A stretch of 64,000 nt of DNA from a virus (lineage: Duplodnaviria > Caudoviricetes). Below, piece by piece: positions 6,496 through 50,330 of the stretch. Numbering within the stretch: the stretch's first letter is position 1; each line of letters starts with the position of its first letter. A program made the translations under genes and the position numbers. Below the pieces are notes generated by a model. The model was not told the origin of the DNA. It ran no database searches and saw only the letters and a program-made list of their open reading frames with translations. The DNA is taken from positions 64,001 through 128,000 of the IMG/VR virus record IMGVR_UViG_3300021133_000001; one strand, given 5' to 3'.

Positions 6496-6711
6496 ATGAA
6501 CAAATATATTGCCGCTTTAGGCATCGTCGATGATTTCCTCGGTGAGGAGATTCCACTAAAAGAGATAAGTGTTATAGCAAAAGATCAGTACGAAGCACAT
6601 AAGACTGCTTTGTTTAAATGCAATTTAGGTAATAAGGAAACTGTCTTTAAAATTAAAGAAGCTTCTACCGGTATTGTAAGGTTTGATCACAAAACCGGTT
6701 TTAGTTCTTAA
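6496..6711 (+). CDS. Hypothetical protein
   Basis: 71 aa ATG ORF convergent with the structural block. Confidence 0.65.
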   Translation: MNKYIAALGIVDDFLGEEIPLKEISVIAKDQYEAHKTALFKCNLGNKETVFKIKEASTGIVRFDHKTGFSS

Positions 6712-9700
6712 TCATTCTTTTCGAAGTAGGCTGTTATTGTCTTGTTACCGTCTACATAGACTGTAGCTATAGAAGTAGAAGCTGCACTCTCATTACCAAA
6801 CGAGGCAGGGTCTTCCTTAACAGTTAAATTACCACCTGTGTAATGTACAGAACCGTCGCCACCTAGTGGGTAAATACCAACATCCCAGCATCCTGGCCCG
6901 TCAACTATTAAAGGAGAACCCTTAGAAGCACCGCTATGGGTTGTACAACCTGGTATACTACCATATGCAGTTAAATATGTACCCACATTACGTATAGTAG
7001 CAATACTACCTGCTATATACGTGCCACCACCAGTTACAAAGCCGTTACCCTTACCTATGACTGCTGCTTGAGTTGTAATAGTGTATCTAGGGGCTGCTAC
7101 AGTGACTGGTATTGTTCTACTATAACCTAAAGTTACTTCAGTTTCGCCTGGACAAGTTGTACGGTTTACTGTTAAGGTTGAACTTGTTAAGCTTGCTGGG
7201 GTTAATTGTAGTACAGGGTTATTTGGGTATGTGCTGCTTGGTACTCCATCAATACTCCAAGTATGAGAAATGTATGGGTTGTTATTAATATAACCACCTA
7301 AACTATTGTTAGATATACCTGCATATGCAGCTGTACCGCTTAACTTATAGACTGTCAATGTACCTGTTGACATACCAAGTGGGCCTGCACTTAAGCCGTT
7401 AGTAAAGTTAGTATCATACAGATAACCTTCAGATACCGAAGCTACTACTCTTGGTACTATAGAATGACCCGCTGTAATACTACCTAGTGATAGATCTACA
7501 CTGAACTTACCTGAATATGTACCAGGATAACCGTCAGGTTGTACGGTATTACTATCTGTAGTGAGATATGTGCTTAATGGTAATACAAATATTGAAGAGT
7601 TACTTGTAGATGTAGTTAAAATAGGTGTAGTATCTTGATTGATAGTAACGTATACACTATTTGCGAAATACCAAGGTGAAGCACCGTATGTTTCACACAA
7701 GTTAATAATTAAGCTTGCAGATAACGGGGCATTTAATACGTTAAACTTAAAGTTATAGTCATTACCGTAACGTGAAGGTAAGCTATTAGGTAAAGCACTA
7801 TATAAGTTACCGATAGCAGCTGCTGAAGCAAATGCAAACAACGTTTCAAGTGTTACATCTAGATAACCCTGACCGTTACTATATACTACACCAGCTGCAT
7901 CTGCAGCAGAACATGAATAATAACCGATATCTGTTAACTGCGCGCTTAATACTGTATATGTAGAGCTAGAAGCGGCTAACGTCTCAATAGGCATACCATT
8001 ATAGAACCACTGATAACCGTAAATAGAGTCTGGGCCACCTGCTGAAGAAACACCAAACGTAAATGTAGCGTCCTGACCAGCGGTTACAGCAACTAAACCA
8101 GGCTGTTCTGTTACTATTGGTTGTGGTTGAATGTATTGGTAGTATGTATATGCACTAGCCGCTGTTGTCCTACCTAATAAATTGTTTATGTAAGAGGGTG
8201 GTTGTACTACATATTCTGGAGTAACTGCAGAGAGTATTGCTGTTTGTATGTTGTAAATTCTGTCAATAACACGATTAATAACTGCAGAACTTAATATTTC
8301 ATTAACATGTACAAAGTTACTTTCATCTGCACTTAAAGAGTTAATTACGTCTGATGCAGAAAGCTGTCTTGTATCAAAAGAAACTAAATTATTACTTTGA
8401 TCTACTGTAATAACATATTTACCTGCAATACTTTTAGCTAAAATTTCGTGATTTTTAAGTACTGCATTTAAAGACTTGTTGTATACCCAGTCCTGTATAA
8501 GTTCATCAGAACCAATAGTATAAGCAGATAGTAATGTATACTGATTACCTATCTTGTCTATATCAAATAGTGTTGATGTACTAGGTAAGTCAATAAACTT
8601 AAATAAGCGCGTACCGGTAGCTACATAGAAGTAACTTCTGTCATCAATAAATGCAGTTACAATAGGTTCATTTAAAGCGTTATTATTATAACTTGGACTG
8701 TTAATACGGTTTACAAATAGACCGGTTGTAGTGTACTTGTAAATGTACTCACTTGTAACAATATAATAGAATACCCCTGTAGGTTCTATTAACAGTTTAA
8801 GTATTTTTGCATTAGCAGGTACTTCAGGTACTTCTAAAGTGTTTAATAAGTTGTTATTTGTGTCGAATACAAACACCTTATAAGGAGAAGGGAATACATC
8901 TTGGTTAGGTGTAACTAAAGGCGAGCTTGGTGCAGAATCATAACCTGCACCATACATACTCATTGCCTGTACTACAAAGCTAACGTAATTTTGAGTAGAG
9001 TCAAATATATACTTGGTTAACCTTGGAGGATTGTCAAGATTGACTGCTGGTGAATAGAAGTTATCTATTTCTAAGTAGTTACCACCGTTACCCTCTACTT
9101 CCCCGTATATAGTGAAGTTTGCACTTACACCAAACACACTAGCTAAACGTAAACCGTCGTGATCCCAGGTGACAGCGTATTGTGTGGTAGCTGCATCTAC
9201 TGCAGATGTCTGTACTGACACGATAACAGGAGCGTTAGGTGCTTTGAGTGTACCTAACATGAGAATATTACCTGTATTTTGATCTATATCAAATGGTGTA
9301 ATTTCGTAACCAGTTAAAGCGCTGGTATAGATTGTATTAACATATGTTAAAGCAGAATTATAAACTTTAATACAGTTATTACTCTTATCAGCTACGTAAA
9401 CTTGATTATTATAGAGTTTAATATCTGTAGGTACATCGGTATAATTTTGACCAGCACCAAAATAGTATTGATCTGTTAATACACCACCAGTACCATCGGG
9501 TTTAGCACCACCAATCTGATTAATAATTGTAGCTGTAGCGCTACCTGCATTATAGTTTAGACCAAACCGATACAAACTAGTAATACCGTAAGGATATGTA
9601 TCAGAAGCTAATACATACAAGTTATTACCACTTACATCTGCTGTATAAATGTTGATATTGTCATTACCAGGTACAACCGCACTTAACAGCGCTACCCTAT

Positions 9701-11678
9701 CATTAGTAAAGTTATTTCTTCTAACTTCTAAGAAACTGTATGAACTATCTGAAGTATAAACAATAAAATTATAATAATCTGGTGCACTATACGGAGACTT
9801 ATATGACTTAAAGTCTCTAATAACACCCGGTACATTACCGTAGTTATATGTAGAAGATAAATCTGTATAAGTGTTTGAACCAGATAAGAACGTATTACAA
9901 TATGGGAATTGTAGAAAATCTCCTACCCATTCGATTAATTCAAATTGAGGTGTCTTTCTTATGGTTTTAGTAATACCGTTTAAATAACTAAAGTTATTAT
10001 CAAGCTTAGTTAAAGCAGCATTAATGTTATCTGCAGTAACCCATTCATTTGAACCAATCTCAACATCGCTTTGAGTGTAAGGCAGTACTGGAACTGTTCC
10101 TTCTAATGTTTTAGCGTAGTCAGCTAAACTAATCTCTGGGAAAGTGTCTTGTACGTAGAACTGCGCGCTTAAAGTAGCAGTCATTAATGGTATTACACCA
10201 GGAACTGCAGGTTTACCGAAATCGGAAGATTGAGAGTAAGCAGAAAGAGTAACTGTATAAGGGTTATTTCTAGCTTTCGTATAAGAATGTGTAAAATATA
10301 TAACCCCGTTAGAAGTTGTAGATGTATCTACTCTATCTGGACCTGTATCATCCCCCCAAGTTACAACATAATAAGGATAACCAGATGGGTGATTAGCATA
10401 AGGAGGTACTGTTTGTATCCAAAATGGTTGATTGGTTTTTAAGAAAGTGTATGGGGTATACAGTTTAAGAGGCGTTGCAGCGGCTGTTAAAGGGTTAGTA
10501 ATAACAGAGAAATCTATAATAGTATCTATTATATTAGAGCCATATGGGGTACCAGCCGTAGATGGGTCTATTTGACCGAAACCAATCTCTGGCCCATAAG
10601 TTGGTATACCAGTTGAAGCCAGTAACGTGCCGTAGTTAGGGTTTTGAAAGCCCTGGCCGTTTAGTCTGTATGTAAAGTGTTTGCTTATAGTAAGCGGGTT
10701 ACCATTTAGGTCTAAAAAGTCTGAATATCTTAAATATGTATTGTTTGCATTACCACCGGCAAATAAACCCGTACCGTAATTACCTACATCTGGACCAAAT
10801 ATGTTAGCATGGTTAGAACCCTCAACAATACGTGCAGTACCTGCAGCACTTAGGGTTGTAACTGGAATCCAGCCTGTTCCTTGGTTATCCATAGAAACAC
10901 TTGCTGTAAAAATTGGGGTAGCATTAGTAGGGGTATAATAAAGATTTATGCTATAAACTGTACCGGAAGTGCTCTTATCTCCTGTATAAAATGAGTGTAA
11001 AACATTACCATCAACATCATACAACTTAACTGTAGTGCCTTTAGGTATAGCGTTACCGTTAATGTCAATAACGTTTAATATAATAGGTTGATTTACACAG
11101 TTAATAAACTGCGCTCCAATAGTTTGCTCATATGTAACAGTAGAAGTAGGTAAAGACATATAGCATATGCCTTGAATGTACTTAAAGCTATTAGAATCTG
11201 GGGTAGGAGAGGGAAAAGTTGGAGCTGTTTGCGGTGTAGATGGTTGTACTACAGCGGCTGTAATGGTTATGTTATATGTTTGGCTGCCTTTATTACCTGC
11301 ATTATCTGTTACATTAATAGTTACAGGGTAAACTTTTGCAACAGCATCACTTGCTACATTACCTTCTAATATATTTGAAACTAGTGAAAGACCTTTAGGT
11401 AATGTAGTAGAATCTACTGAAAATGTGTACGGACTAACACCACCTGTAGCTGTGAATGTTACAGAGCTATAAGCTGCACCCTTAACCCCGTTATTTAAAA
11501 CAGAAGGGAAAATAGTAATAACAACACCAGTAGGTTTTGTAGAAGGTGCATTTTCATCTATACTTAACGCAATATAAGAAGCATTACCAGGTATGTATGA
11601 GTATGTAACTGTACTAGTATACCCGTTTGTACCGGTATAGTTAAAAGTAACTGGATTGTTGGTTATACTAGTTGCCAT
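6708..11678 (-). CDS. Large virion structural protein with Ig-like (He_PIG/PKD/I-set) and NHL-type propeller segments
   Basis: ATGGVSPYTFSV...LPKGLSL, TWGDD...HSYTK, VYVADKSNNCIKVYN, YQWFYNG...DIGYYSC. Confidence 0.75.
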   Translation of the reverse strand: MATSITNNPVTFNYTGTNGYTSTVTYSYIPGNASYIALSIDENAPSTKPTGVVITIFPSVLNNGVKGAAYSSVTFTATGGVSPYTFSVDSTTLPKGLSLVSNILEGNVASDAVAKVYPVTINVTDNAGNKGSQTYNITITAAVVQPSTPQTAPTFPSPTPDSNSFKYIQGICYMSLPTSTVTYEQTIGAQFINCVNQPIILNVIDINGNAIPKGTTVKLYDVDGNVLHSFYTGDKSTSGTVYSINLYYTPTNATPIFTASVSMDNQGTGWIPVTTLSAAGTARIVEGSNHANIFGPDVGNYGTGLFAGGNANNTYLRYSDFLDLNGNPLTISKHFTYRLNGQGFQNPNYGTLLASTGIPTYGPEIGFGQIDPSTAGTPYGSNIIDTIIDFSVITNPLTAAATPLKLYTPYTFLKTNQPFWIQTVPPYANHPSGYPYYVVTWGDDTGPDRVDTSTTSNGVIYFTHSYTKARNNPYTVTLSAYSQSSDFGKPAVPGVIPLMTATLSAQFYVQDTFPEISLADYAKTLEGTVPVLPYTQSDVEIGSNEWVTADNINAALTKLDNNFSYLNGITKTIRKTPQFELIEWVGDFLQFPYCNTFLSGSNTYTDLSSTYNYGNVPGVIRDFKSYKSPYSAPDYYNFIVYTSDSSYSFLEVRRNNFTNDRVALLSAVVPGNDNINIYTADVSGNNLYVLASDTYPYGITSLYRFGLNYNAGSATATIINQIGGAKPDGTGGVLTDQYYFGAGQNYTDVPTDIKLYNNQVYVADKSNNCIKVYNSALTYVNTIYTSALTGYEITPFDIDQNTGNILMLGTLKAPNAPVIVSVQTSAVDAATTQYAVTWDHDGLRLASVFGVSANFTIYGEVEGNGGNYLEIDNFYSPAVNLDNPPRLTKYIFDSTQNYVSFVVQAMSMYGAGYDSAPSSPLVTPNQDVFPSPYKVFVFDTNNNLLNTLEVPEVPANAKILKLLIEPTGVFYYIVTSEYIYKYTTTGLFVNRINSPSYNNNALNEPIVTAFIDDRSYFYVATGTRLFKFIDLPSTSTLFDIDKIGNQYTLLSAYTIGSDELIQDWVYNKSLNAVLKNHEILAKSIAGKYVITVDQSNNLVSFDTRQLSASDVINSLSADESNFVHVNEILSSAVINRVIDRIYNIQTAILSAVTPEYVVQPPSYINNLLGRTTAASAYTYYQYIQPQPIVTEQPGLVAVTAGQDATFTFGVSSAGGPDSIYGYQWFYNGMPIETLAASSSTYTVLSAQLTDIGYYSCSAADAAGVVYSNGQGYLDVTLETLFAFASAAAIGNLYSALPNSLPSRYGNDYNFKFNVLNAPLSASLIINLCETYGASPWYFANSVYVTINQDTTPILTTSTSNSSIFVLPLSTYLTTDSNTVQPDGYPGTYSGKFSVDLSLGSITAGHSIVPRVVASVSEGYLYDTNFTNGLSAGPLGMSTGTLTVYKLSGTAAYAGISNNSLGGYINNNPYISHTWSIDGVPSSTYPNNPVLQLTPASLTSSTLTVNRTTCPGETEVTLGYSRTIPVTVAAPRYTITTQAAVIGKGNGFVTGGGTYIAGSIATIRNVGTYLTAYGSIPGCTTHSGASKGSPLIVDGPGCWDVGIYPLGGDGSVHYTGGNLTVKEDPASFGNESAASTSIATVYVDGNKTITAYFEKND

Positions 11679-11918: not shown

Positions 11919-14900
11919 TTATTGCCAGATTATTTGATTTAACTGCGTGTAAGCAGGGGTCGTTTTACTTAATGAAGATAATATGTTTTTCTCTATAATA
12001 CTTCTAATACCTGGATCGGTAATATTAGAGTTTTTAATTTTAATATTATATAAATGAGATTTAGCACCAGGTAAACGATGAGGGAAGAATCTATCTATTT
12101 GTTCTATATAATAACGAGTGCCTGCAGGAGCAGCCCAAGTTAAATCTGAATAACTGTTTAAAGTAAAGCGTCTTTGTAGTGCAACAATATCAGCTCTTTC
12201 TAGAGCTTGAAAATAGAACCGTACATCTGCGATGGCTCCGTTAAAACTGTAAGGATCTATTGTTTGCTTAGTAAACTCAGATAATGTTTGAGTTTTAAAG
12301 CTAGATGTACCTACTACTAAGTCTACATTGTTACGCTGATTGTATATCCTGTATACACCTGCAGAAAGATCTCCAACAGAGGTACTTGTTGCTAAATTAC
12401 CGTCAACGTACAGATTTAACATGTTGTACGGATCAATACTAATAGCAAAATGGTGCCAACCAGGCATTAAAATAGATGAGTTGTAGTTTAACTGATAAAC
12501 TTTATTATCTCTCTTTAAAGTAGCTGTATTATTAACGTTTGCTTTTACTGTTAATAATGTCTTACTGTTATTCTGTATGTAATTGTATTTGCGCTGATAA
12601 TCATAACCGGTAGCATCACCAATTTGAGTAATATAAAGTGGCGCTGAACTTAAAGTACCATACATGGCTGTAGTAGCGTTATAAGTTGCTAGTATCTTAC
12701 CACTTAATGGTTCTACCTTAAACACGTTTTGTGTTTTACCATCTATAACAACTGCATTGTATACAATAGAATTAGAGTTAGGGTCAAGCTCTGCAGAGAA
12801 ATTAATAATACGAGACGAATTTCTAGGTTTACCGTTAACTGCAAATACTTGATCGCTTGTCAAGCTGATATCCCATATTAATCTACCGTAATTGTCTAAT
12901 TTGCATAGATTGCTACCAGATAAGCCACCGTATAACAACCAAAGATTGTTTTGGTGATCACATGCTACATATTCTGCATGGTAAGCAGATAATATAAACT
13001 GTGGGCTGTTAGTATTAAGATTTCTTACTAATATATCACCAGATAGGGCAAATACTACATTATTACTATCTACTGTACCGCTAGTGGTACCGTTAAAGTA
13101 AGAAATATTACCACTTAAGTCTAAAGCATAACTAGTAAACCCTGCATTTGAGTTACCTGTTAAGAAAGTACCGTTTGGGTCGAACTTATACCAATAAACT
13201 GTGTTATTGTAGTATGTAAACACATACAATTTACGTATATTGTTTTCATATATTAAATGTGCATTCATTAATGCACCTAATAACTCTTGACCACTGCTGT
13301 TATATAAATGAAACTTCTTAAGTAGGGTGCCGTCTTGATCGTATTCAAATACGTCTTTTTGTACGTCTATAATAAAGTAACTTTCATTGTAGTTACCTTT
13401 TAATACGATACTATTACCGCTAGCTGGCGCATTAGTAGTAGTGTGTAATGAAGATAACTGAGTGTTTAAAGTCTGTATCTTAGTTTTATCACCAACCAAT
13501 GTAATGAACGGTGTAATGAGAGGGTTATATTTAAACAAACCGAAACCACCATTATAGAAATTGCCTATAATCTGATCTCCACGAAAATTACTCCAATCAT
13601 TGTTATATGCTTGGAATGCTAGTGTAAAACCTGGTACATATAGGTCATTATCCGTTAAGTTTAACTTAGCATAACTAACTGAAGTATTTAAAGCCTGATC
13701 TCTTGTACCTGTATAAGTTTGAGTTGAGTTACTAACTAAATTATATACATATCCTGCACTTAAACCTGTAACATTGTTAACTAATGGGTTAGTCCATGTT
13801 GTTATTTGATGTGTTAGTGTGCCTGAAAGATTATCAACAACCATTAAGTTATCGTTATCCCCTATTTTATGATAAACGTATAAGCTTTCAGGGCATAATA
13901 CTTGTGTAGTAGGGGTATCCCAAATAACATTAGGGTAATTATTATTACTAGGACTGACCCCAGGAGAATTTAACACTAATGCAGGACCAACTTTGTTAGG
14001 ATCAAAGTACCTATCCATCCATACCGGTTCTGCACCTATATCTGATGCAGATAACCAAGAACAGAATAATGTACCTGGTTGAGAGCTTAAAGCATTGATA
14101 TAATTGCCCCAAGGTGTGTATTTTCTATAATTTGCTTGTTTAACAAATATACGATCTGAACGCCAAGGCGATGAACCTGGAGTCGCACCAGACTTAGCTA
14201 ATGTACTACCAGACAATGCTATATTAACAGCACTTACAGGATAATGAAAATATGTATCCTTATTTTTATAGAAGGTCTGAGCTGCTTGATTGCCTAGATA
14301 ACTTAAATAAATTTTGTCATAACCTTCTTCAGTGTTTAAACCAGTGAAAATCTTATTATACAATCTTGACTGTGCACTTAAAGTAGGGGTTTGAATATAT
14401 TCCGGAGAATAATAATTCTTTAAAGGTGTAATGTTATAATCTAGCTCGTCAGATATAGAAGCAATATCTTCATAAGGAGCTGTAATTAAATAATTGTAAG
14501 GTAGTTTTGAAGTTGCTACGCTTATATCAATACTATTGGGTGTATTGACGTATTTTACGTTACTACTATCACCTACAGATTTATATGCTGTTTCAGTAAA
14601 TCTATTTAAAGTAAAAACGTTAGTATTAGTGTTAAAGCCTAAGAATGTACTTGTTTTTAAATATGTGTTATCAATATCACTAACTACATACCCGTTTTCT
14701 GAGCCACCATTAACAAATAAACTAATATTGTTTTTATAAAGATTATAATGCAGTACATAAGCTGTACTAGACATTCTCAAACCGCCATCTATATTTGTAA
14801 AACCGTTTACATAAGCAACATAGTTATTGTTGTATGTTACAGCAACTGTATTAGCGCTTGTTACGAACGTTAATGTGAATAAAGTAGCTTTAGTAGGATC

Positions 14901-15238: not shown

Positions 15239-16084
15239 TTATACTACCTTATCTGGAAAGCATTTTTTAGCATCATCATGCAATAATTGTATATTTTGCA
15301 TGGTGGTAAACTCTTTAAAATGCTCAATAATTGGAGTAACATCTAAACCAAGCTCTATATGCCCTATAAAATAGTTTCTAATTTTATTCTCTAAAGTAAG
15401 CGGATATTTTACACCATTAGGTCTGCCAAATCTATGCATCCATCTCAAAAAAGGTAAACATAAAGTTTTTTTACCAGCTCGGCGATATTTCTCATGTATG
15501 TAACCTTCTTCCCCACCAAAACCTCTAAAATTTGGATTGAAGCCTAGCCAACTATCTTTTCTACAAGCAAATAGCCCTAAACCCTGCGCGGGTATCTCAA
15601 ATGGTTCATTGTTAAGGTTTTTAGCACGTTCATTTGTTGCCCATATACCCCACATTTGGCTTCTCCACACTAAATCAAACTGAGTGGCTATATTTTTTAA
15701 ATCATCATATAACATTGGGCCCTGTAACAAATTACCGCTATCTTTACTTTGATCAAAAAAATCAATTAATTTTTTTATTGCGCCTGACTCTAATAATATA
15801 TGGCAATCAATACACATTACGTAAGGAGTAGTTGCAAGCTCGAATATTTTTGTTCTTATAGCAGTACTGTTATATTCAGTAAATGGTACATATGTAACTA
15901 ATTGCGGAAAAGAATATGTTAGGTTTTTAACCGCGGTACCATGAGAACTATTCGGGTTGTTATCTATTATTATAAATTCAATATCATTTAAAACTTCTGA
16001 ATGATACATACGTATAGCTTGTATAGTAAAGTATACTCCATCATAATCATCATATGTAGTAAAACCTATAGTGAGTTTTTTCAT
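15239..16084 (-). CDS. Glycosyltransferase family 2
   Basis: EFIIIDNN, YVMCIDCH (DxH), GLFACRK, GFGGEEG. Confidence 0.85.
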   Translation of the reverse strand: MKKLTIGFTTYDDYDGVYFTIQAIRMYHSEVLNDIEFIIIDNNPNSSHGTAVKNLTYSFPQLVTYVPFTEYNSTAIRTKIFELATTPYVMCIDCHILLESGAIKKLIDFFDQSKDSGNLLQGPMLYDDLKNIATQFDLVWRSQMWGIWATNERAKNLNNEPFEIPAQGLGLFACRKDSWLGFNPNFRGFGGEEGYIHEKYRRAGKKTLCLPFLRWMHRFGRPNGVKYPLTLENKIRNYFIGHIELGLDVTPIIEHFKEFTTMQNIQLLHDDAKKCFPDKVV

Positions 16085-21897: not shown

Positions 21898-21954
21898 ATT
21901 ATACGGCTACAATGTTGTGGTAATTAATATTCATATTATACGGCTACAATGTTG
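21881..21954. repeat. Perfect 37-bp tandem duplication spanning a gene junction
   Basis: TGGTAATTAATATTCATATTATACGGCTACAATGTTG at 21881-21917 and 21918-21954. Confidence 0.95.
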
Positions 21955-40187: not shown

Positions 40188-40196
40188 ATATTATAT

Positions 40197-43121
40197 TTAA
40201 CTTAATCTTGCACTTAACTGTGCTATTAAAGTATTTTGATTATTTATTTGTACTTGTTGTTCTTTAATAGCTTCTACTAGTAAAGATGTTAAACGACTGT
40301 AATCAATACCGATATAGTTTCCGGCGCTATCTGGGTCATCATAAACTACTTCTGGAACTATATTTACTGTATCTTCTGCAATAAGCCCTATATCGTTTGG
40401 ATCGGTTTTAAGAGTGTTATCATACCATACACCAGATAATTGTAGTACTCTATTTAAAGAATTGGTTAATGGTCGTATATTAGTCTTAAAACGTCTAGAT
40501 GAAGTAGAAGTAAATGAATAAGCTGTAATACCAAGAGATGTTGATATAGCACTACCATTATCAGTAATAGAACTATTAGTTACTGTGGTTGAACTGTTAA
40601 ACTTAGCAACAACATTTGAAGTACCGCCTGAACCAGCAGCTGCACCTTGTGCGCCTGTAGCTCCCTGTGCACCTGTTGATCCTGTAGCACCTTGTGCACC
40701 GGTAGAGCCTGTAGCACCTTGTGCGCCTGTAGCACCTTGTGCGCCGTTAGAACCGTTTGTACCAGCTGCACCTTGTGCACCATTCGTACCAGCTGCACCT
40801 TGAGCGCCTGTAGAACCAGTAGAGCCTTTTAAGCCAGAATAACCTGAAGCGCCTTGAGCGCCAGTAGAGCCTGTAGCGCCTTGAGCGCCTGTTGCACCTT
40901 GAGCGCCAGTAGAACCTGTAGAACCTGTTGCACCTTGAGCGCCAGTAGAACCTGTAGAACCTGTTGCACCTTGAGCTCCTGTAGAGCCTTTAGCACCAGA
41001 GTAACCAGAGTAACCAGAGTTTGATCCTGCTGCTTGAATTTGTGAACCAGGATACTCAACAATTAAACCTGCTGTAGTACCTATACCGATCATAACCGGT
41101 TTAATGATTGAACCTACAGCTGATGGGGGTGTTGTGGTCATTAGACCTGCTGTTGCGTCTGAAAGATAATATTGTGCAGCATCTACTATACCTGTAAAGC
41201 CTGAAGTATAACCGTTAGCTACATACTGGAAAGAAGTACCAGTAGCGCTTACTACTACACCGATAATATCTGACGTGCTTGGGCTGTTGGCTTGTGCTAA
41301 TGCATAACCACCAGATGTCTTGTATATAACATTACCCGGACTAAAAGAGTTGCTATATGTTACATTTACATTAGTAGCATTTAAACCGCTTATACCAGAA
41401 AAACCAGATACACCTGAACCACTAAAACCACTAAAGCCTGAGTAACCAGAAACACCGCTAAAGCCTGAAATACCGCTAAAACCTGATTGACCAGAAATAC
41501 CACTGAAACCAGATATACCACTAAATCCTGAAATACCTGTATAGCCAGAATATCCTGTAATACCGCTAAAGCCTGAGATACCAGAGAAGCCTGATATACC
41601 ACTAAAACCGGACCAGCCTGATATACCGCTCGCTCCTGATATACCGCTAAAACCACTAATACCTGTAAAGCCTGAATAACCAGAGATACCGGAGAAACCT
41701 GTTATACCACTAAAACCGGACCAACCACTGATACCGCTAAAGCCTGAAATACCGCTGAAACCACTTATACCTGAAAAACCAGAAAAGCCTGTGAAGCCAC
41801 TATAACCAGATATACCGCTAAAACCTGAAATACCTACACCAGAATAACCTGATGTACCAGACACACCCTGACCGATTGGGGTACGTACTACAGTAAACTG
41901 CGAACTACCGTTATATTGGTAAGCAGCAGTAAGTGTTGTTGTACTTGTTGTATAAGCTGCAACTTGTAATAAGATACGATCTGTTGCAGAAAGAATTGTA
42001 ATATTGCTTGTAGCGTACTGTACTTTTTGATAGGTTGAAGTAGTATCTGTAACGGCACCGGAATCGGCGCTTAAAATAAATGCACTCGTGGCACTAGTTG
42101 CCATTGAGTAACTATAAATGCTAAATACAAAATTAGCTGTACCACCTAAAGCGTAACGATAAAATTCTATATCCCATAAACCTGCAGGTATTTCTGTTAT
42201 ACCAGGTTCACCGATTGGTGTTAAGTACCAACCGAAAGCACTTGGACTGCCTGGACCTGCTGTAGTAGAATTAAGAGCTAGTTGGTCGTCATTAACTGTC
42301 GTACCACCACCGCCTGGCTGTAAAGCCATAACTTCAAACACAGCAGGGTTTTGATCACTAGTTACTTCCTGTAAGAAATACGTTCTACCATATACAGATG
42401 CGCCTGTGCCACCTGACCAACCCGAAATACCACTAAAGCCGCTGATTCCGCTAAAACCACTTATACCACTAAAGCCAGACCAGCCTGATACACCACTTGC
42501 ACCAGATATACCGCTAAAACCGGATATACCACTAAAACCGCTGAAGCCAGAATAACCGCTGACACCACTGAAACCACTTATACCTGTATAACCGGAATAG
42601 CCAGAAATACCTGTAAAACCTGAATAACCTGATATACCGCTAAAACCAGACCAGCCTGATATACCACTAAAACCTGATACACCACTCGCTCCTGATATAC
42701 CGCTGAAACCACTTATACCTGAAAAACCAGATATACCACTTGCGCCAGATATACCACTGAAACCAGAAAAACCTGAAATACCTGTATAACCGCTATAACC
42801 GGAAATACCGCTAAAACCACTTATACCTGAAAAACCAGACCAACCGGATATACCGCTAAAGCCTGAAATACCTGTATAACCACTATAACCGGATATACCA
42901 CTAAAGCCAGAAAAGCTCGAGTAACCGCTATAACCGGAAATACCAGAGAATCCACTTATACCACTAAAGCCAGAAAAGCCTGAAATACCAGTAAATCCAG
43001 AATAACCGGAAGCACCCTGTGCACCAGTAGAGCCTTTTGCACCTTGCGCACCTGTTACGCCAGTAGTACCTGAGTAACCAGACTGTCCCTTAATCGCTGT
43101 GTATACAAATGTATTGCTCAT
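40197..43121 (-). CDS. G-[F/Y/I/W]-S repeat fibre with shared globular modules and S74 chaperone
   Basis: Two long SG-repeat tracts, GAQ tract, SSRRFKTNI...IDYSRLTSLLVEAIKE. Confidence 0.85.
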   Translation of the reverse strand: MSNTFVYTAIKGQSGYSGTTGVTGAQGAKGSTGAQGASGYSGFTGISGFSGFSGISGFSGISGYSGYSSFSGFSGISGYSGYTGISGFSGISGWSGFSGISGFSGISGYSGYTGISGFSGFSGISGASGISGFSGISGFSGISGASGVSGFSGISGWSGFSGISGYSGFTGISGYSGYTGISGFSGVSGYSGFSGFSGISGFSGISGASGVSGWSGFSGISGFSGISGFSGISGWSGGTGASVYGRTYFLQEVTSDQNPAVFEVMALQPGGGGTTVNDDQLALNSTTAGPGSPSAFGWYLTPIGEPGITEIPAGLWDIEFYRYALGGTANFVFSIYSYSMATSATSAFILSADSGAVTDTTSTYQKVQYATSNITILSATDRILLQVAAYTTSTTTLTAAYQYNGSSQFTVVRTPIGQGVSGTSGYSGVGISGFSGISGYSGFTGFSGFSGISGFSGISGFSGISGWSGFSGITGFSGISGYSGFTGISGFSGISGASGISGWSGFSGISGFSGISGFSGITGYSGYTGISGFSGISGFSGISGQSGFSGISGFSGVSGYSGFSGFSGSGVSGFSGISGLNATNVNVTYSNSFSPGNVIYKTSGGYALAQANSPSTSDIIGVVVSATGTSFQYVANGYTSGFTGIVDAAQYYLSDATAGLMTTTPPSAVGSIIKPVMIGIGTTAGLIVEYPGSQIQAAGSNSGYSGYSGAKGSTGAQGATGSTGSTGAQGATGSTGSTGAQGATGAQGATGSTGAQGASGYSGLKGSTGSTGAQGAAGTNGAQGAAGTNGSNGAQGATGAQGATGSTGAQGATGSTGAQGATGAQGAAAGSGGTSNVVAKFNSSTTVTNSSITDNGSAISTSLGITAYSFTSTSSRRFKTNIRPLTNSLNRVLQLSGVWYDNTLKTDPNDIGLIAEDTVNIVPEVVYDDPDSAGNYIGIDYSRLTSLLVEAIKEQQVQINNQNTLIAQLSARLS

Positions 43122-43152: not shown

Positions 43153-46100
43153 TTATACTATAAACCAGTTAGTACCGTTATATACAATAGTGGTTGCTTC
43201 GTAGTTATAGTTTAATAGATAAGTAGCTTGACCGTCAATTGTTACCCCTGCACCAGATAACGTAATGTTATTTGTGCGAGCTGCACCAGATTCGTCTTTA
43301 ATTGTTATAAATGTACCTTGATTTAATGGTAGAGCTGGCAAGTATAATAAAGCACTTCCAGAGACATTAACACCTACATATTCGTCAGTTGACTGTAATA
43401 CGTTTGGTGAAGTTGTTACTAATCTTACACCTTGAACGTTTGGATATATAATCTGTGAATTATCGAGATTTAAGTAACCACGTTCGTTTACAACAACTGC
43501 TGTTGTAGATGTAACAGCTCTCATGATTGGCTTCGACACTGTACCGAAAGCACTTGGTGAAACTGTTGTAACACTACCTGCAATAGTTGGTGATAGGTAA
43601 TAACATTCCCCTGGTGTCAAGCTTGCAAGACCTGTAATTAAGCCCATGTATACGATTGTAAATGTTGTACCTGTTGAAGATTGAACAACACCGGTTGCTT
43701 CAGCATCTGTTACATTGTCTGCTTGAGCTAAGAACCAACCACTTGAACCGTTGTCAAGACGTACCACGTTACCAGCACTGAATGTGTTGGTATATGTAAT
43801 GACTTGACTTGAAATGTTTACTGTAGTACCAGAGATACCTGAGAAACCAGATATACCGCTAAAGCCGCTATAACCGGAAATACCAGAGAAGCCCGATATA
43901 CCAGAAGCGCCAGACCAGCCTGAAATACCACTAAAGCCTGATATACCGCTAAAGCCGCTAATACCGCTAAAGCCTGAAATACCAGAAAAGCCGGAGTAAC
44001 CAGAAATACCCGAGAAACCAGATATACCGCTAAAACCGCTGTAGCCACTAATACCGCTAAAGCCAGACCAGCCGCTAATACCTGAGAAACCGCTAATACC
44101 AGTGAAACCACTGATACCTGTAAAGCCTGAATAACCAGACCAACCAGAGATACCGCTAAAGCCGCTTATACCGCTAAAGCCGGAGTAGCCTGAAATACCA
44201 GAGAAGCCGCTATAGCCACTTATGCCACTAAAGCCAGACCAACCACTGATACCGCTGAAACCGCTAATACCGGTAAAGCCTGAGAAGCCAGAGTAGCCTG
44301 AGATACCAGAGAAGCCTGAGATACCACTAAAGCCGCTATAGCCACTAATACCGCTAAAGCCCGATATACCAGAGAAACCAGAATAACCTGACCAACCACT
44401 GATACCACTAAAGCCTGATATACCAGTAAAGCCTGAGAAGCCGCTTATACCGCTAAAACCACTATAGCCTGAAATACCGCTAAAGCCTGATATGCCCGAG
44501 AAACCGGACCAACCGCTAATACCAGAGAAGCCTGAAATACCAGAGAAGCCACTTATACCGCTAAAGCCAGAGTAACCAGATATACCGCTGAAGCCTGACC
44601 AACCAGAAATACCTGAGAAACCAGATATACCAGAGAAGCCAGACCAACCAGAAATACCACTAAAGCCTGAGGTACCAATACCGCTAAAGCCGGAGAAACC
44701 TGAACTACCACTTACACCTTGACCGATTGGCGTACGTAAAGCGGAATATATTGAACTACCATTGTAATGGTAAGTAGCAGTAATTGTTGATGTGCTTGTT
44801 GTATAAGCTGCAACTTGTAATAAGATACGATCTGTTGCAGAAAGCTTTGTAATCGTGCTTGTAACGTAACCTAATTTTTGGAAAGTTGAAGATGTATCTG
44901 TAACAGGACCTGAATCAGCACTTAAGATAAATGCGCTAGTAGCGCTTGTAGCCATTGAGTAACTATATACGCTAATAACAAAGTTTGCTGCGCTAGCAGA
45001 AACGTTACGATAGAAATCGAATTCCCACAAACCAGCTGGAATTTCAACTAAGCCTGGTTCCCCAATTGGTGTTAAGTACCAACCGTAAGCGCTTGGGCTA
45101 CCTGGACCTGCTGTGGTAGAGTTAAGAGCTAATGCGTCATCGTTTACGTCTGTACCACCACCGCCTGGCACTAACGACATTACTTCAAATACTGTTGGGT
45201 TTTGATCGCTTGTTACTTCTTGTAGGTAGTATGTTCTACCGTAAATGGATGCACCGGTACCACCAGAGACACCAGACCAACCACTAATACCACTGAAACC
45301 ACTAATACCGGTAAAGCCACTATAACCGGAAATACCACTAAAGCCTGAAATACCGCTAAAGCCGGAGTAACCAGAAATGCCTGAGAAACCGCTAATACCA
45401 GTAAAGCCTGACCAACCGCTAATACCTGAGAAACCTGAAATACCAGTATAGCCAGAATAGCCTGAAATACCGCTAAAGCCGCTTATACCGCTAAAGCCTG
45501 AGATACCAGAGAAGCCAGAATAACCTGACCAACCGCTAATACCGCTAAAACCACTTATACCTGTATAGCCTGAGTAGCCGGAAATACCGCTAAAGCCTGA
45601 CCAACCAGAGATACCAGAGAAGCCAGACCAGCCTGATATACCGCTGAAACCGCTTATACCTGTAAAACCTGAAATACCAGAAAAGCCTGAGAAGCCAGAA
45701 TAACCTGAAATACCAGACCAACCAGAAATACCGGTATAGCCTGAATAACCGCTAATACCCGTAAAGCCGCTATAACCGGAAATACCTGTAAAGCCGGACC
45801 AGCCTGAAATACCACTAAAGCCGGAAATACCAGAGAAGCCCGAGAAGCCAGTGTAACCACTAAAACCGGTGAAGCCAGAAATACCGCTAAAACCGCTAAT
45901 ACCAGTGTAGCCAGAATAACCTGAAATACCTGTAAAGCCTGAATAGCCTGAAATACCAGAGAAGCCGGACCAGCCACTAATACCGCTGAAACCGCTTATA
46001 CCTGTAAAACCTGACCAACCTGAAATACCACTAAAGCCGCTAATACCTGTAAAGCCTGAAATACCAGAAAAGCCACTATAGCCGGAAATACCGGAGAAGC

Positions 46101-46269
46101 CGGACCAACCAGAGGTACCACTGATACCACTAAAGCCGGACCATCCGCTAATGCCTGAGGCTCCGGAATAACCGCTTGTGCCGGTTGCGCCTTGTGCACC
46201 TGTTGCACCGTTTGCGCCAGAGAAACCTGATTGACCTCTAATTGCTGTGTATACGAAGGAATTTGCCAT
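43153..46269 (-). CDS. G-[F/Y/I/W]-S repeat fibre (no S74 domain)
   Basis: Roughly 600 of 1038 aa are SGISGF-type repeats; three globular modules shared with neighbours. Confidence 0.8.
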   Translation of the reverse strand: MANSFVYTAIRGQSGFSGANGATGAQGATGTSGYSGASGISGWSGFSGISGTSGWSGFSGISGYSGFSGISGFTGISGFSGISGWSGFTGISGFSGISGWSGFSGISGYSGFTGISGYSGYTGISGFSGISGFTGFSGYTGFSGFSGISGFSGISGWSGFTGISGYSGFTGISGYSGYTGISGWSGISGYSGFSGFSGISGFTGISGFSGISGWSGFSGISGWSGFSGISGYSGYTGISGFSGISGWSGYSGFSGISGFSGISGFSGISGYSGYTGISGFSGISGWSGFTGISGFSGISGYSGFSGISGFSGISGYSGFTGISGFSGISGWSGVSGGTGASIYGRTYYLQEVTSDQNPTVFEVMSLVPGGGGTDVNDDALALNSTTAGPGSPSAYGWYLTPIGEPGLVEIPAGLWEFDFYRNVSASAANFVISVYSYSMATSATSAFILSADSGPVTDTSSTFQKLGYVTSTITKLSATDRILLQVAAYTTSTSTITATYHYNGSSIYSALRTPIGQGVSGSSGFSGFSGIGTSGFSGISGWSGFSGISGFSGISGWSGFSGISGYSGFSGISGFSGISGFSGISGWSGFSGISGFSGISGYSGFSGISGFSGFTGISGFSGISGWSGYSGFSGISGFSGISGYSGFSGISGFSGISGYSGFSGFTGISGFSGISGWSGFSGISGYSGFSGISGYSGFSGISGFSGISGWSGYSGFTGISGFTGISGFSGISGWSGFSGISGYSGFSGISGFSGISGYSGFSGISGFSGISGFSGISGFSGISGWSGASGISGFSGISGYSGFSGISGFSGISGTTVNISSQVITYTNTFSAGNVVRLDNGSSGWFLAQADNVTDAEATGVVQSSTGTTFTIVYMGLITGLASLTPGECYYLSPTIAGSVTTVSPSAFGTVSKPIMRAVTSTTAVVVNERGYLNLDNSQIIYPNVQGVRLVTTSPNVLQSTDEYVGVNVSGSALLYLPALPLNQGTFITIKDESGAARTNNITLSGAGVTIDGQATYLLNYNYEATTIVYNGTNWFIV

Positions 46270-46325: not shown

Positions 46326-49300
46326 TTAAACTAAATTCCATCTATTGCCGTAATATACTAAGCTTATTGTTTCATACGGGGATGTAATTTGGTCAAAAGT
46401 GTATCCGTCAATGGTGTCTGGATATGTAGCAGATATTGTAATAGTATTTGTAGTATCATTAGCTAATCCTGTCATATCTTTAATAGAATATGCTTTACCA
46501 TTATAACCAACTGGTAGAGTAATGGTAGAAGGTCCGTTGTATTGTACACCAATGTAATAGTCTGTAGGTACAGCTGTATAGTATTGATTAGTAACGCCTG
46601 TTACGTTTACAGAACCACCTAATGCAGAGTCGTTTGAATTTAATATACCTCTTTCATTAACAACAACACCCACATTTGATGTAATTGCACGTAGTATTGG
46701 TTTTGAAACAGTACCTGTAGCACTAACTACTGCAGTTGTAATAGCACCAGGAACATCTGGGGATAAGAAATAGCATTCCCCTGGATTTAATAGTGGTTGA
46801 TCAAATGTTATTAAACCGTTATATACTATATAGAAGTCGTAAGCAGAAGCATATTGTACAACACCAGTTGCTTCAGCATTTTGAGGTGTATTAGCCTGGG
46901 ATAAGAACCAACCGCTATTACCGTTATCAAGTCTTACTACTTGACCTGCACTAAAACTATTACTATAAGTTATTAACTGACTAGAAATATTAACAGGCGA
47001 GCCACTATAACCGGATATACCGCTAAAGCCCGAGAAACCAGAAATACCGCTATAACCCATTATACCGGAATAACCGCTAAAGCCAGACCAACCAGATATA
47101 CCTGAGAAACCATCTATACCGCTATAACCTGAAAAACCGCTTATACCAGAAAAACCTTGTACACCTTGATAACCACTAAAGCCTGACCAACCACTAGAGC
47201 CTGAAGTACCGGAATCGCCTTTTACTTGACCAACATTAGTCCAGGTACCACCAGCATGTACCCATAAATCACCAGAAGTTTCATCTATAACACCGTTACC
47301 GTCAACTGCTGATGAGAACGCGGCGTTTAAAGTTTGTTGTGGGTCGCCAGGTGGGTTAACATTAGCGTCTGGTACAGTACCAATAATAGCAACTGAAGAA
47401 CCGTTAACACCAGAGTAACCAGAAAGACCTACATCGCCTTGTGCACCTTGCGGTCCAATATCTCCTTGAGAGCCTTGGGAACCTTGGAAGCCTTGATCTC
47501 CCTGTGCACCTTGGGGTCCGGTATCGCCTTGATTACCTTGCGGTCCAATATCACCTTGAGCGCCTTGTGGGCCGAAGTCGCCTTGTGCACCTTGATAACC
47601 TTGTGCACCTTGTGAGCCGACATCCCCTTGATAGCCTTGAGGTCCTATATCCCCTTGCGCACCTTGTGGGCCGAAACCTGAATAACCAGATACACCAGAA
47701 CCGCTAAAACCTGAGAAGCCAGATATACCAGTAAAGCCTGAGAAGCCACTATAACCTGACCAACCAGATACACCTGTATAACCAGAATAACCCGATATAC
47801 CACTATCCCCACTGAAACCGGAAATACCGCTAAAGCCACTAAAGCCGCTTGTACCGGTAAAACCGCTTATACCGCTAAAGCCTGAAAAACCAGAATAACC
47901 TGAAATACCAGACCAACCAGAATCACCTGTGAAACCTGATATACCGCTAAAACCGGACCAACCAGATGTTCCAGAGATGCCCGAAAAGCCTGATATACCA
48001 CTGAAGCCTGACCAGCCGCTTATACCACTAAAGCCTGATATACCTGAAGCACCTGAAATACCGCTAAAACCAGATATACCGCTAAAGCCCGACCAACCGC
48101 TTATACCTGTATAACCAGATATACCGGAGAAGCCTGATATACCTGAAAAACCACTTATACCGCTAAAGCCTGATTGACCAGAATAACCAGAATAACCTGA
48201 TACACCAGAACCACTGAAACCAGATATACCTGATTGACCAGAGAAGCCTGAGTAACCAGAAATTCCTGAGAAGCCAGATATACCACTAAAACCGCTTATA
48301 CCTACAAAGCCTGAGTAACCGCTAAAGCCTGAAATACCGCTTGCGCCAGACCAACCAGAGGTACCAGAGTCACCTTTTACTTGACCTACATTAGTCCAGG
48401 TACCGTTTGTATATACCCATAAATCGCCAGTATTTTCATCTATAACACCGTTACCGTTTACGGCGCCTGGGAATGCAGCGTTTAAAGTAGCTTGTGCGTT
48501 ACCACCTACAGTAGGTACTGTACCAATAATAGTAACTGAAGTACCGTCTTTACCACTATAACCAGACTTACCACTAGTACCACTAAAACCACTTATACCA
48601 CTAAAACCAGAAATACCTGAAAAACCTGAGTAACCAGATATACCAGAAAAGCCTGATATACCGCTAAAGCCTGATATACCAGAAGCACCGCTAAAGCCGC
48701 TATAACCAGTTATGCCGCTAAAACCGGACCGACCCGAAATACCGCTAAAGCCTGAAGTGCCGGAAGCGCCACTTATACCACTAAAACCACTAATACCGCT
48801 AAAGCCTGATTGACCGGTATAGCCCGAGTAACCAGATATACCACTGAAACCTGATATACCACTTGCGCCAGATATACCACTAAAGCCCGAGTAACCAGAA
48901 GTACCTGAAGCACCACTTATACCGCTAAAGCCTGACTGACCCGAATAACCTGAATAACCAGACCAGCCTGAAATACCGCTAAAGCCTGATTGACCGCTGT
49001 AGCCACTATAGCCAGAAATACCACTAAAACCGGAAATACCTGATTGACCGGTAAAGCCTGAGTAACCGCTAAAACCTACATAACCGCTGAAGCCGCTGTA
49101 GCCGGAAATACCGCTAAAGCCCATATAGCCGGAGTACCCAGAAAAGCCTGAATAACCAGACGTACCGGAGTAACCCATATCACCGCTATAACCGGAAATA
49201 CCGCTATAACCAGAAGTACTATCACCACTAAAACCTGAAATACCTTGATCGCCTTGTGCACCTTGAGGGCCTGTAGCACCACTATAACCAGACGCGCCAT

Positions 49301-50330
49301 CTTTACCATCTGAACCTAAAGTAAGGTTAGTTACAAACCTACTATAATGATTTGTACCAAGATACCAATATGTAATGTCAACACCACCACCTGCATTAGG
49401 GTCTGAGGTATCTGTTGTTTGACCAAATACGCTTATCTTAATTCTGTCAGATAAGTTTAAAGGTATTGGGGTATCAATATAATATGATGTTCTTTGGAAT
49501 GTCGGTGTAGGTGTTCTTGTTAATGCATCACCTGTTACCGAAAACAACATTGTTTCATTGTCGCTTGGATCTACCTTGTAAACAGCGTAAGTTAAATGAG
49601 TATTAACGCCTGGATCCATTGCATGTGGACCAGACATTGAATAATACGTATCAAAGTACCAAGTACCAGTATTAATTAACGACTTATTAGGAGAACCTGT
49701 AAGCGTAATTGTATATAATATTGGAGCAGGGTTTTGAAGGTAATTAAAATAACCGGAATCATCTGCAGCTTCAGCAGCATCTTGAGGCTCTGGAGTTAAA
49801 AATACATCGTTTGGTACGTCTGCAGCAATATTAGTTGGGTATAATATTAGACCAACAACTGATTGACCAGAATAGCCAGACTTACCACTATAACCGGATA
49901 AACCTAAACCTGAAAAACCAGAATAACCACTAGCACCGCTTATACCACTAAAACCAGAAGTACCGGAACTGCCTTGTGCTCCTTGTGCACCTTGTGCTCC
50001 GTTAATACCGGAGTAACCAGATGCACCAGTGTCTCCTTGCGGACCGGTAGGTCCTTGAGGGCCCATGTCACCTTGCGCACCAGGAGGCCCACCTGCTGAC
50101 AAAGCAGAAATTGCTACCGAGTAAGTTGTATATGAACCGTCATTATTGACTTGCTCCAAGAACGTTAGATCGTTCGTTGTAATGTTTGGGGCTTGAGAAA
50201 GTTCGTGTGGAAATACAATAGACGGTACTACATTGCTTCCGGCTGTAGTTGTTGCACCCGAAACACCATAATCATTAAGTGCGGATAATTCGTTTACATA
50301 TACTATAGTGGGGTATTGCGGAACCGGCAT
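46326..50330 (-). CDS. G-[F/Y/I/W]-S and GPQ/GAQ repeat fibre (no S74 domain)
   Basis: 1334 aa; SG repeats, acidic collagen tract, duplicated GDLWV...WTNVGQVKG knob. Confidence 0.8.
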   Translation of the reverse strand: MPVPQYPTIVYVNELSALNDYGVSGATTTAGSNVVPSIVFPHELSQAPNITTNDLTFLEQVNNDGSYTTYSVAISALSAGGPPGAQGDMGPQGPTGPQGDTGASGYSGINGAQGAQGAQGSSGTSGFSGISGASGYSGFSGLGLSGYSGKSGYSGQSVVGLILYPTNIAADVPNDVFLTPEPQDAAEAADDSGYFNYLQNPAPILYTITLTGSPNKSLINTGTWYFDTYYSMSGPHAMDPGVNTHLTYAVYKVDPSDNETMLFSVTGDALTRTPTPTFQRTSYYIDTPIPLNLSDRIKISVFGQTTDTSDPNAGGGVDITYWYLGTNHYSRFVTNLTLGSDGKDGASGYSGATGPQGAQGDQGISGFSGDSTSGYSGISGYSGDMGYSGTSGYSGFSGYSGYMGFSGISGYSGFSGYVGFSGYSGFTGQSGISGFSGISGYSGYSGQSGFSGISGWSGYSGYSGQSGFSGISGASGTSGYSGFSGISGASGISGFSGISGYSGYTGQSGFSGISGFSGISGASGTSGFSGISGRSGFSGITGYSGFSGASGISGFSGISGFSGISGYSGFSGISGFSGISGFSGTSGKSGYSGKDGTSVTIIGTVPTVGGNAQATLNAAFPGAVNGNGVIDENTGDLWVYTNGTWTNVGQVKGDSGTSGWSGASGISGFSGYSGFVGISGFSGISGFSGISGYSGFSGQSGISGFSGSGVSGYSGYSGQSGFSGISGFSGISGFSGISGYTGISGWSGFSGISGFSGISGASGISGFSGISGWSGFSGISGFSGISGTSGWSGFSGISGFTGDSGWSGISGYSGFSGFSGISGFTGTSGFSGFSGISGFSGDSGISGYSGYTGVSGWSGYSGFSGFTGISGFSGFSGSGVSGYSGFGPQGAQGDIGPQGYQGDVGSQGAQGYQGAQGDFGPQGAQGDIGPQGNQGDTGPQGAQGDQGFQGSQGSQGDIGPQGAQGDVGLSGYSGVNGSSVAIIGTVPDANVNPPGDPQQTLNAAFSSAVDGNGVIDETSGDLWVHAGGTWTNVGQVKGDSGTSGSSGWSGFSGYQGVQGFSGISGFSGYSGIDGFSGISGWSGFSGYSGIMGYSGISGFSGFSGISGYSGSPVNISSQLITYSNSFSAGQVVRLDNGNSGWFLSQANTPQNAEATGVVQYASAYDFYIVYNGLITFDQPLLNPGECYFLSPDVPGAITTAVVSATGTVSKPILRAITSNVGVVVNERGILNSNDSALGGSVNVTGVTNQYYTAVPTDYYIGVQYNGPSTITLPVGYNGKAYSIKDMTGLANDTTNTITISATYPDTIDGYTFDQITSPYETISLVYYGNRWNLV

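Follow-up and report, generated by a model that had tools for sequence, protein, structure and literature searches.

Why should several unrelated proteins of one viral tail module contain the same tripeptide many times over, and do the serine-rich repeats of the fibers encoded among them belong to the same phenomenon? This question is raised by the window analyzed here, a stretch of 64,000 nucleotides (bases 64001-128000) of one viral contig of 140,180 bp with 36% GC and a CheckV completeness of 44% (IMG/VR record IMGVR_UViG_3300021133_000001). In a block at positions 6708-50330, a first-pass annotation had proposed a single surface-modification system, in which a common hydrophobic-Ser-(Gly/Ala) motif of repetitive fibers and other virion proteins would be served by co-located sugar enzymes. 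According to our analysis, the block holds two separate features, namely collagen-like fibers and a motif of Leu and Ser followed by a small residue (Leu-Ser-small) in four globular proteins. We prefer to view the latter motif as a recognition tag centered on the serine, for which O-glycosylation by a phage enzyme would be the most plausible purpose, and assign a probability of roughly 40% to this reading.

The terminase of this genome is 34% identical to terminases of Synechococcus myophages and is followed by genes for sheath, tube, and T4-type baseplate proteins, which points to a distant, uncultured T4-like myovirus as the source. In a tblastn search against GenBank phages, the 1097-amino-acid (aa) protein of the block had no homolog, and hence no cultured relative was found.

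The Leu-Ser-small excess in four tail proteins

In those block proteins that are not collagen-like, Leu-Ser-Ala (LSA) occurred 27 times against 1.98 expected occurrences (Poisson p=1.3e-21) and thereby ranked first of all 8000 tripeptides, and LSG ranked third with 11 occurrences against 2.1 expected. Over the whole block, 41 LSA were counted, against 6.1 expected from composition or 12.8 expected from a first-order model that already includes the dipeptides of the motif itself. The rest of the 140-kb genome showed nothing of this kind, with 8 LSA against 8.5 expected and an observed/expected ratio of 25/25.5 for LS[AGS]. The excess noticed by eye in the first-pass annotation therefore persisted after correction for composition. 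Its LSA and LSG counts for the four carrier proteins were exact on recount (see Table 1), and the absence of LSA from terminase, sugar dehydrogenase, the glycosyltransferase family 2 protein (GT2), and nucleotidyltransferase was reproduced.

With collagen repeats masked, the 1097-aa, 1656-aa, 519-aa, and 88-aa proteins had observed/expected numbers of LS[AGS] of 18/2.4, 15/2.7, 7/0.48, and 4/0.18, respectively. Under the same masking, the excess was marginal in the block outside these four carriers, and the sheath, tube, baseplate, and related downstream genes together gave 6/8.4. The earlier view that virion proteins are generally rich in LSA and LSG thus holds for four distal tail proteins but not for the other structural proteins; the contrast lies between one distal-tail module and everything else and not between structural and non-structural proteins.

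As such an excess could in principle be an artifact of composition, shared ancestry, or a signal at the DNA level, we considered these sources together. Some sites are indeed common to paralogous fibers, and two 9-mers are used somewhat more often than expected, namely TTAAGTGCA with 9 copies and CTTTCTGCA with 7. However, the four carriers have no BLAST similarity to one another and no internal repeats or self-matches, which rules out common ancestry or internal duplication as the cause. LSA is encoded by 23 different codon triplets that include both the AGY and the TCN serine codons at roughly background usage; selection therefore takes place at the level of the protein sequence, and a DNA-level motif is ruled out. 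As the excess also survives the composition and first-order corrections, permuted tripeptides are not enriched, and the non-structural proteins of the genome have no excess, an artifact is contradicted by the tests and hardly credible.

The excess is an evolutionarily maintained trait. In the families of the two large carriers, 308 LSA were observed against 31 expected (1097 family) and 122 against 16 expected (1656 family), and the seven homologs of the 519 family contained 31 LS[AGS] against 5.3 expected. The excess was kept across about 100 homologs and was found in all related viral contigs retrieved, so that the test for enrichment in related phages suggested in the first-pass annotation had a positive outcome. 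The individual sites are not conserved to the same extent. In the 1097 family, LSA is spread over 62 alignment columns, only one of which is conserved in at least half of the sequences, whereas the permuted controls LAS, SLA, SAL, and ASL occupied 10-32 columns. The excess is thus maintained in a large phage clade with high positional turnover. Distant homologs from a phage with 29% GC still showed a 3-5-fold excess once LSS and LSG were included, which rules out a trait restricted to the clade. A general property of T4-type fibers is ruled out as well, since neither T4 (3 observed, 3.0 expected) nor the cultured cyanophage S-RSM4 (22 observed, 17 expected) showed an excess. In the literature, we found no published explanation for an excess of Leu-Ser-Ala/Gly.

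The residue specificity was computed on 17 homologs of the 1656-aa protein and 64 homologs of the 1097-aa protein. The observed/expected ratios were 7.7-9.9 for LSA, 2.6-5.7 for LSG, 2.6-3.2 for LSS, and 2-3 for VSA. There was no enrichment of ISA (0.5-0.9), FSA (0.7), YSG (0.6-0.7), WSG (0-0.4), or LTA (0.6-1.4), and LST, LSV, LSN, and LSP were all at about 1. The globular motif is thus Leu-Ser-(Ala>Gly>Ser), with Leu strongly preferred over Val and Ala and with no role for Ile, Phe, Tyr, Trp, or Met at the first position, with Ser but not Thr at the second, and without Thr, Val, Asn, or Pro at the third. A helix N-cap motif is ruled out by the lack of enrichment of LSP, LTA, LDA, and LNA. 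No wider context was detected around the motif except for a weak hydrophobic preference at positions -3, +5, and +8, numbered from the Leu. In homologs that lack the motif at a given site, position 1 is occupied by Leu, Ile, or Val (59-67% hydrophobic), position 2 by Ser, Asn, Thr, Gly, Asp, or Lys, and position 3 by a small residue. Judged from this substitution pattern, the Leu position is probably of a buried type, and the Ser position, which tolerates polar and charged residues, is probably exposed.

PHROGs and Pfam returned no function for the carriers, and their architecture was therefore addressed with predicted models. The 1097-aa protein consists of a β domain at the N-terminus, a β-propeller with approximately 6-7 blades, and a domain that resembles LamG/ConA (Pfam Laminin_G_3); in its AlphaFold model (pLDDT 83), the propeller matches NHL/YVTN structures. 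The model of residues 404-1166 of the 1656-aa protein (pLDDT 79) matches WD40-like β-propellers. When the motif sites were mapped onto the secondary structure of the predicted models, as the first-pass annotation had suggested, mixed contexts were found. Sites 90, 387, 723, and 741, as well as 665 of the 1656-aa protein, are at strand ends; sites 40, 278, 699, 764, 836, and 949 are in loops or short turns, 2-4 residues ahead of a strand; sites 478 and 503 are mid-strand; and site 1149 is at a helix end. Family-wide, 62% of the sites lie outside strands, in comparison to 40-48% for control patterns, and 42% lie at most 4 residues upstream of a strand, in comparison to 22-29% for the controls. 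In the propeller, sites 699 and 836, as well as 723 and 764, are found in blade-equivalent loops, and a structural explanation of the motif therefore stays alive.

Some motif copies are found at the very ends of proteins. M-x-L-S-A forms the N-terminus of 28 of the 98 members of the 1097 family, and the 519-aa protein starts with M-L-S-A, as do its close relatives. At the other end, LSA is present at most 6 residues from the C-terminus of the 88-aa protein (31492-31758) and of the fibers encoded at 23499-27119, 28428-29348, and 40197-43121. Within the genome, such terminal copies exceed the number expected from the overall excess only marginally (p 0.02-0.08); the three fibers concerned are paralogs of one another.

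In the distant relative with 29% GC (L018, ENA contig k141_31537), the 1097-type gene is placed after a T4 gp15-like gene and is followed by genes for products of 257, 311, and 536 aa, the last of which has a Gp38 adhesin domain. This gene order suggests that the 1097 family belongs to a long-tail-fiber-like module.

Collagen-like fibers of the same block

The fibers had been described as carrying hundreds of tandem [F/Y/W/I]-S-G units, and we counted 520 of them across seven fibers. These units are best read as Gly-X-Y collagen triplets taken out of register. All seven fibers match the Pfam family Collagen (PF01391) with E-values from 2e-11 to 7e-102, and together they contain 1017 Gly-X-Y triplets in uninterrupted runs of up to 110, which are nearly free of Pro. 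The X position is mostly Phe, Ile, Tyr, or Trp (up to 93%) or Ala, with Leu being rare, and the Y position is mostly Ser (up to 88%). Asp and Glu are almost absent from X and Y, save for one fiber with 17 Asp in 238 triplets. A Peptidase_S74 domain was found above the Pfam cut-off at the C-terminus of the five fibers that begin at 17799, 23499, 28428, 39009, and 40197, and was not detected by Pfam in the fibers at 43153 and 46326. Peptidase_S74 is an intramolecular chaperone domain that folds trimeric phage fibers and then cuts itself off. The seven fibers would accordingly be collagen-like trimers, five of which end in such a chaperone domain. The Gly-Tyr/Ile-Ser type of collagen was also found in four relatives (L009-L012).

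In typical bacterial collagen-like proteins, Pro makes up 19-31% of the X positions and Thr 32-48% of the Y positions (PMC8968730). In comparison, the Pro-free and aromatic fiber collagen of the window is compositionally unusual, and Gly-(Phe/Ile/Tyr/Trp)-Ser collagen with runs of more than 100 triplets challenges the usual rules of triple-helix stability. If the globular motif discussed below were a true glycosylation sequon, the Ser-rich aromatic fibers may be further glycan acceptors. They do not share one motif with the globular proteins, as had initially been assumed, since the residues that dominate the X position (Phe, Ile, Tyr, and Trp) are just those for which the globular proteins show no enrichment ahead of Ser-Ala/Gly.

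Several of the LSG copies in the fibers (23499-27119 and 46326-50330, both on the minus strand) come after a one-residue register break of the form G-L-G-L-S-G or G-I-G-L-S-G, and such collagen interruptions are found at similar spots in different fibers. Between the collagen fibers, positions 29407-31758 (minus strand) also encode a flavoenzyme that Pfam assigns to the tryptophan halogenase family (E 7e-86), together with a DUF6445/2OG-Fe(II)-oxygenase-like protein. The fibers that flank the halogenase have Trp at X positions, and the Leu-Ser-rich 88-aa protein adjoins the halogenase/oxygenase pair. Further along, positions 36872-39005 (minus strand) encode two tandem paralogs of 354 and 355 aa, which are 57-59% identical and rich in Gly, Ser, Thr, and Asn. 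They have no Leu-Ser-Ala excess and thus serve as a useful internal negative control.

Table 1. Coordinates of the motif carriers, sugar-related genes, and fibers in the window
Feature	Position	Strand	Remarks
Nucleotide-sugar dehydrogenase (called 'Ugd')	538..1764	-	Pfam UDPG_MGDP_dh domains
1656-aa outer tail protein	6708..11678	-	He_PIG/Ig domains and WD40-like β-propeller; 11 LSA vs 0.81 expected
1097-aa outer tail protein	11919..15212	-	6 LSA, 7 LSG, 5 LSS; richest Leu-Ser-small carrier
GT2	15239..16084	-	Pfam PF00535, 30.4 bits vs cut-off 23.3
477-aa protein	16366..17799	-	Small Ig-like domains and poly-Thr(-Pro) linkers, one run of 21 Thr; upstream neighbor of GT2
1198-aa fiber	17799..21395	-	35 N-terminal triplets, long non-collagen body, S74
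519-aa protein	21936..23495	-	No known family; M-L-S-A start; 4 LSA
Collagen-like fiber	23499..27119	-	263 triplets; C-terminal S74
Short collagen-like fiber	28428..29348	-	50 triplets, mainly Gly-Ala-Gln/Thr; S74
88-aa protein	31492..31758	-	Beside halogenase gene; 3 LSA; 4 Leu-Ser-small, one at most 5 residues from the C-terminus
Short collagen-like fiber	39009..40187	-	57 triplets, mainly Gly-Ala-Thr/Gln; S74
Collagen-like fiber	40197..43121	-	165 triplets; C-terminal Peptidase_S74
Collagen-like fiber	43153..46269	-	209 triplets; X = F74, I73, Y28, W19; Y = S184; runs of up to 110
Collagen-like fiber	46326..50330	-	238 triplets, mostly Gly-(F/I/Y)-Ser

The candidate glycosyltransferase and rival explanations

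If the Leu-Ser-small motif is a tag, it would be read by a factor acting in trans, and the best candidate for such a process would be O-glycosylation of the Ser by a phage glycosyltransferase. Among such enzymes, suspicion would fall first on the conserved GT2, whose gene lies directly upstream of the genes for the 1097-aa and 1656-aa proteins, at a distance of 26 nucleotides from the former on the same strand, and is probably co-transcribed with them. D93-x-H95 and H217 of this GT2, which would make up its metal-binding site, are invariant in 30 homologs. The family is very large and mostly viral, with 2917 relatives, and the best 120 of these are at least 59% identical. The gene order GT2, 1097-type gene, 1656-type gene recurs in four independent contigs, namely in the window and in L005, L015, and L025; in the latter three, the GT2 is about 70% identical, whereas the neighboring proteins are just 35-54% identical. 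The more specific version of the tag reading, in which Leu-Ser-(Ala/Gly) would be a three-residue O-glycosylation sequon recognized in the cytoplasm by this GT2 and/or by other phage glycosyltransferases, seems distinctly doubtful to us.

The genome has further genes for sugar metabolism. It contains five GT2 matches in total, that of the window and four more, and three of the latter are located in a glycan island at genome positions 39,561-45,398 (L023:5562-11399), about 25 kb before the window, where their genes span 40.6-44.6 kb; the fourth is encoded at 62.3-62.9 kb of the genome. This island encodes a UDP-galactopyranose mutase, a GT2 with a weak TPR-like tail, a DUF6445 (2OG-oxygenase-like) protein, two more GT2s, and an APS-kinase/cytidylyltransferase-like protein. 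Two of the three island GT2s recur at a syntenic place in the 109-kb contig of a relative, which amounts to partial conservation, and the gene for the GT2 with the TPR-like tail was not found in the contigs of five relatives. Only GT2-type glycosyltransferases were found; within the 140-kb contig, which is 44% complete, there was no match to GT9 (PF01075), and no GT41-type enzyme was found either. The thymidylate-synthase/dCMP-hydroxymethylase family, which we looked for as a hint of sugar-modified DNA, also had no match within this contig. The nucleotide-sugar dehydrogenase had been annotated as Ugd. The Pfam family domains are present, but its TIGR03026 score of 170.2 bits is under the subfamily cut-off of 189.8 and its scores for the Ugd equivalogs are far under theirs, so that the specificity is unproven. 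The dehydrogenase is 84-88% identical in two relatives (L001 and L002).

Several observations weigh against the tag reading. The idea of co-located sugar enzymes stands insofar as the GT2 gene recurs directly upstream of the genes for the two richest proteins and more sugar genes are present in the genome. However, the GT2 is absent beside the 1097 homolog in 7 of 11 distinct relatives (L002, L003, L006, L009, L010, L011, and L013), and these are equally motif-rich, with a mean of about 9.4 LS[AG] without the GT2 in comparison to 11 with it. In the contigs of four relatives (45-109 kb, 17-58% complete), no homolog of this GT2 was found at all. The likeness of the GT2 to polypeptide GalNAc-transferases is weak as well. 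With the single sequence, residues 147-223 matched GalNAc-T7 (E 0.05) and GalNAc-T10 (E 0.45) in the PDB, and some Atlas neighbor clusters of the GT2 carry PF02709, but a profile query instead matched TarP (E 0.0024) and chondroitin synthase. The comparison with solved structures therefore provides no more than a lead toward polypeptide GalNAc-transferases, as the single-sequence similarity was not significant and was not reproduced by the profile query. In addition, the poly-Thr protein that neighbors the GT2 on the side opposite to the 1097-aa gene looks like a more conventional, mucin-type candidate acceptor. On the side of the substrates, both large carriers contain β-propellers with several sites at blade-equivalent loops (699/836 and 723/764), the model of the 1656-aa protein places two sites in the middle of strands, and the 3-5-fold excess in distant homologs could mean that the trait belongs to a fold family.

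These latter aspects lead to the explanation that Leu-Ser-small is a local structural habit of β-rich proteins at strand-to-loop transitions or turns of propeller blades and sandwiches, which is favored by folding or stability and has no enzyme as a reader. We consider this possible, albeit on the unlikely side. Apart from the blade-equivalent loops, the accumulation of sites shortly upstream of strands agrees with it, as do the conserved hydrophobic, buried-type residue at position 1, the excess in the very distant homologs from the phage with 29% GC, and the fact that no enzyme tracks the motif. From a structural habit one would, however, also expect acceptance of Ile, Val, and Thr, which homologs use in the corresponding columns; ISA and LTA nevertheless show no enrichment. 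It also does not easily explain that the contexts are mixed, ranging from mid-strand and strand end to loop, 3-10 turn, and helix end, that the motif is common to four unrelated proteins, and that the 354/355-aa paralogs of the same module, as well as the fibers of T4 and S-RSM4, have no motif excess. Alternatively, the motif could be a docking or client tag for assembly, read by a dedicated chaperone or by the β-propeller of a partner without any chemical modification. The limitation of the excess to one assembly module would fit, the extreme terminal positions in several families (1097, 519, S74 fibers, 88-aa) would fit as well, and a Leu that is buried later would be in agreement with recognition before folding. 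Small genes downstream of the 1656-aa gene, at 4079-6099 on the minus strand, encode products of 81-172 aa that could be assembly factors, since they are 65-98% identical in phages whose fibers have an identity of only some 35%; for the product of 5261-5554 (97 aa), most identities range from 92 to 98%, with lower values, down to 29%, in four relatives. None of these small genes had a match in Pfam or PHROGs, and no chaperone was identified. As 10-18 internal copies per protein are unusual for a docking motif, and as the terminal excess within the genome is not significant beyond the overall excess, we regard an assembly tag as improbable.

The original unified model, with one hydrophobic-Ser-Gly/Ala sequon for fibers and globular proteins and with the fibers as proteoglycan-like brushes that carry glycosaminoglycan-type chains made from UDP-glucuronate, is very improbable. 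In its favor, Ser occupies up to 88% of the Y positions, a sugar dehydrogenase and glycosyltransferases are present, and the collagen-like protein BclA3 is O-glycosylated at Thr in the Y position, with Ser being accepted in vitro (PMC7157674). The residue preferences of the two features are, however, mutually exclusive, with Phe, Ile, Tyr, or Trp in the fibers and only Leu in the globular proteins, and the dehydrogenase gene is 13 kb away from the GT2, outside the fiber module. The analogy to serglycin-type proteoglycans is unsupported: the likeness is confined to the repeated Ser-Gly dipeptide, which in the window is a by-product of the collagen triplet periodicity in a nearly acid-free context. 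Priming of glycosaminoglycans requires a eukaryotic xylosyltransferase and usually acidic flanks.

Relation to known systems and significance

The tag reading can be compared with known glycosylation systems of surface proteins. One of the closest arrangements is that of SgtA in Clostridioides difficile, a transferase whose gene lies beside the gene for the collagen-like BclA3 and which can also use Ser instead of Thr in vitro (PMC7157674). In common with this system, and with BclA of Bacillus anthracis, are the collagen-like Gly-X-Y fibers with a hydroxyl residue at Y and the glycosyltransferase gene immediately upstream of the presumed substrate gene. In contrast, the GT2 of the window adjoins genes for non-collagen proteins, the triplets follow the pattern Gly-(Phe/Ile/Tyr/Trp)-Ser instead of Gly-Pro-Thr, a GT41-type enzyme was not found in the contig, and glycosylation is a proposal here. 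Another possible model is TibC, a Ser-specific heptosyltransferase that acts at the sites N-S313-G-G and T-S322-A-A (PMC4358343). TibC/AAH, with the substrates TibA and AIDA-I, resembles the proposed system in being cytoplasmic, in addressing many sites on a β-rich surface protein, and in the use of Ser, not Thr, with a small residue thereafter. The differences are that TibC/AAH are of the GT9 type with a GT-B fold, which the contig lacks, that no preceding Leu is needed, and that the substrate is a β-helix.

Phage-encoded glycosyltransferases that act on virion proteins are not without precedent. Freeman and colleagues reportedly described in 2023 that virions of the mycobacteriophages Che8, Corndog, and Myrna are glycosylated by phage-encoded glycosyltransferases (Cell Host Microbe 31:1216, as cited in PMC11256854). 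The glycans are said to decorate subunits of the capsid and the tail tube in siphoviruses that infect Actinobacteria. The likeness consists of phage-encoded glycosyltransferases and of virion proteins as acceptors, which are actual there and proposed here; the difference is that the candidates of the window belong to the distal tail of a T4-like myovirus and contain a defined tripeptide. With respect to the fibers, collagen-like prophage tail-fiber proteins are reported from E. coli O157 (PMC3368898). Collagen-like S74 fibers of phages and prophages share Gly-X-Y repeats and Peptidase_S74 with those of the window, and it is the near absence of Pro, together with up to 93% Phe, Ile, Tyr, or Trp at X, that sets the latter apart from bacterial collagen-like proteins with their 19-31% Pro at this position.

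A tenfold, selection-maintained excess of one tripeptide in unrelated receptor-side proteins is rare. The tag hypothesis is directly testable in E. coli without phage culture, and if the sequon were true, the minimal Leu-Ser-Ala tag and a small soluble transferase would make a useful tool for glyco-engineering. If the explanation were structural instead, the motif would represent a new sequence rule for β-propeller-rich fibers. Returning to the glycosylation tag, a true sequon would mean that uncultured aquatic T4-like phages of a large clade attach sugars to dozens of defined serines in the apparatus with which they recognize their hosts. Abundant phages of lakes and oceans would then decorate their adsorption machinery, with consequences for host range, for the evasion of host defenses and grazers, and for the stickiness of the particles.

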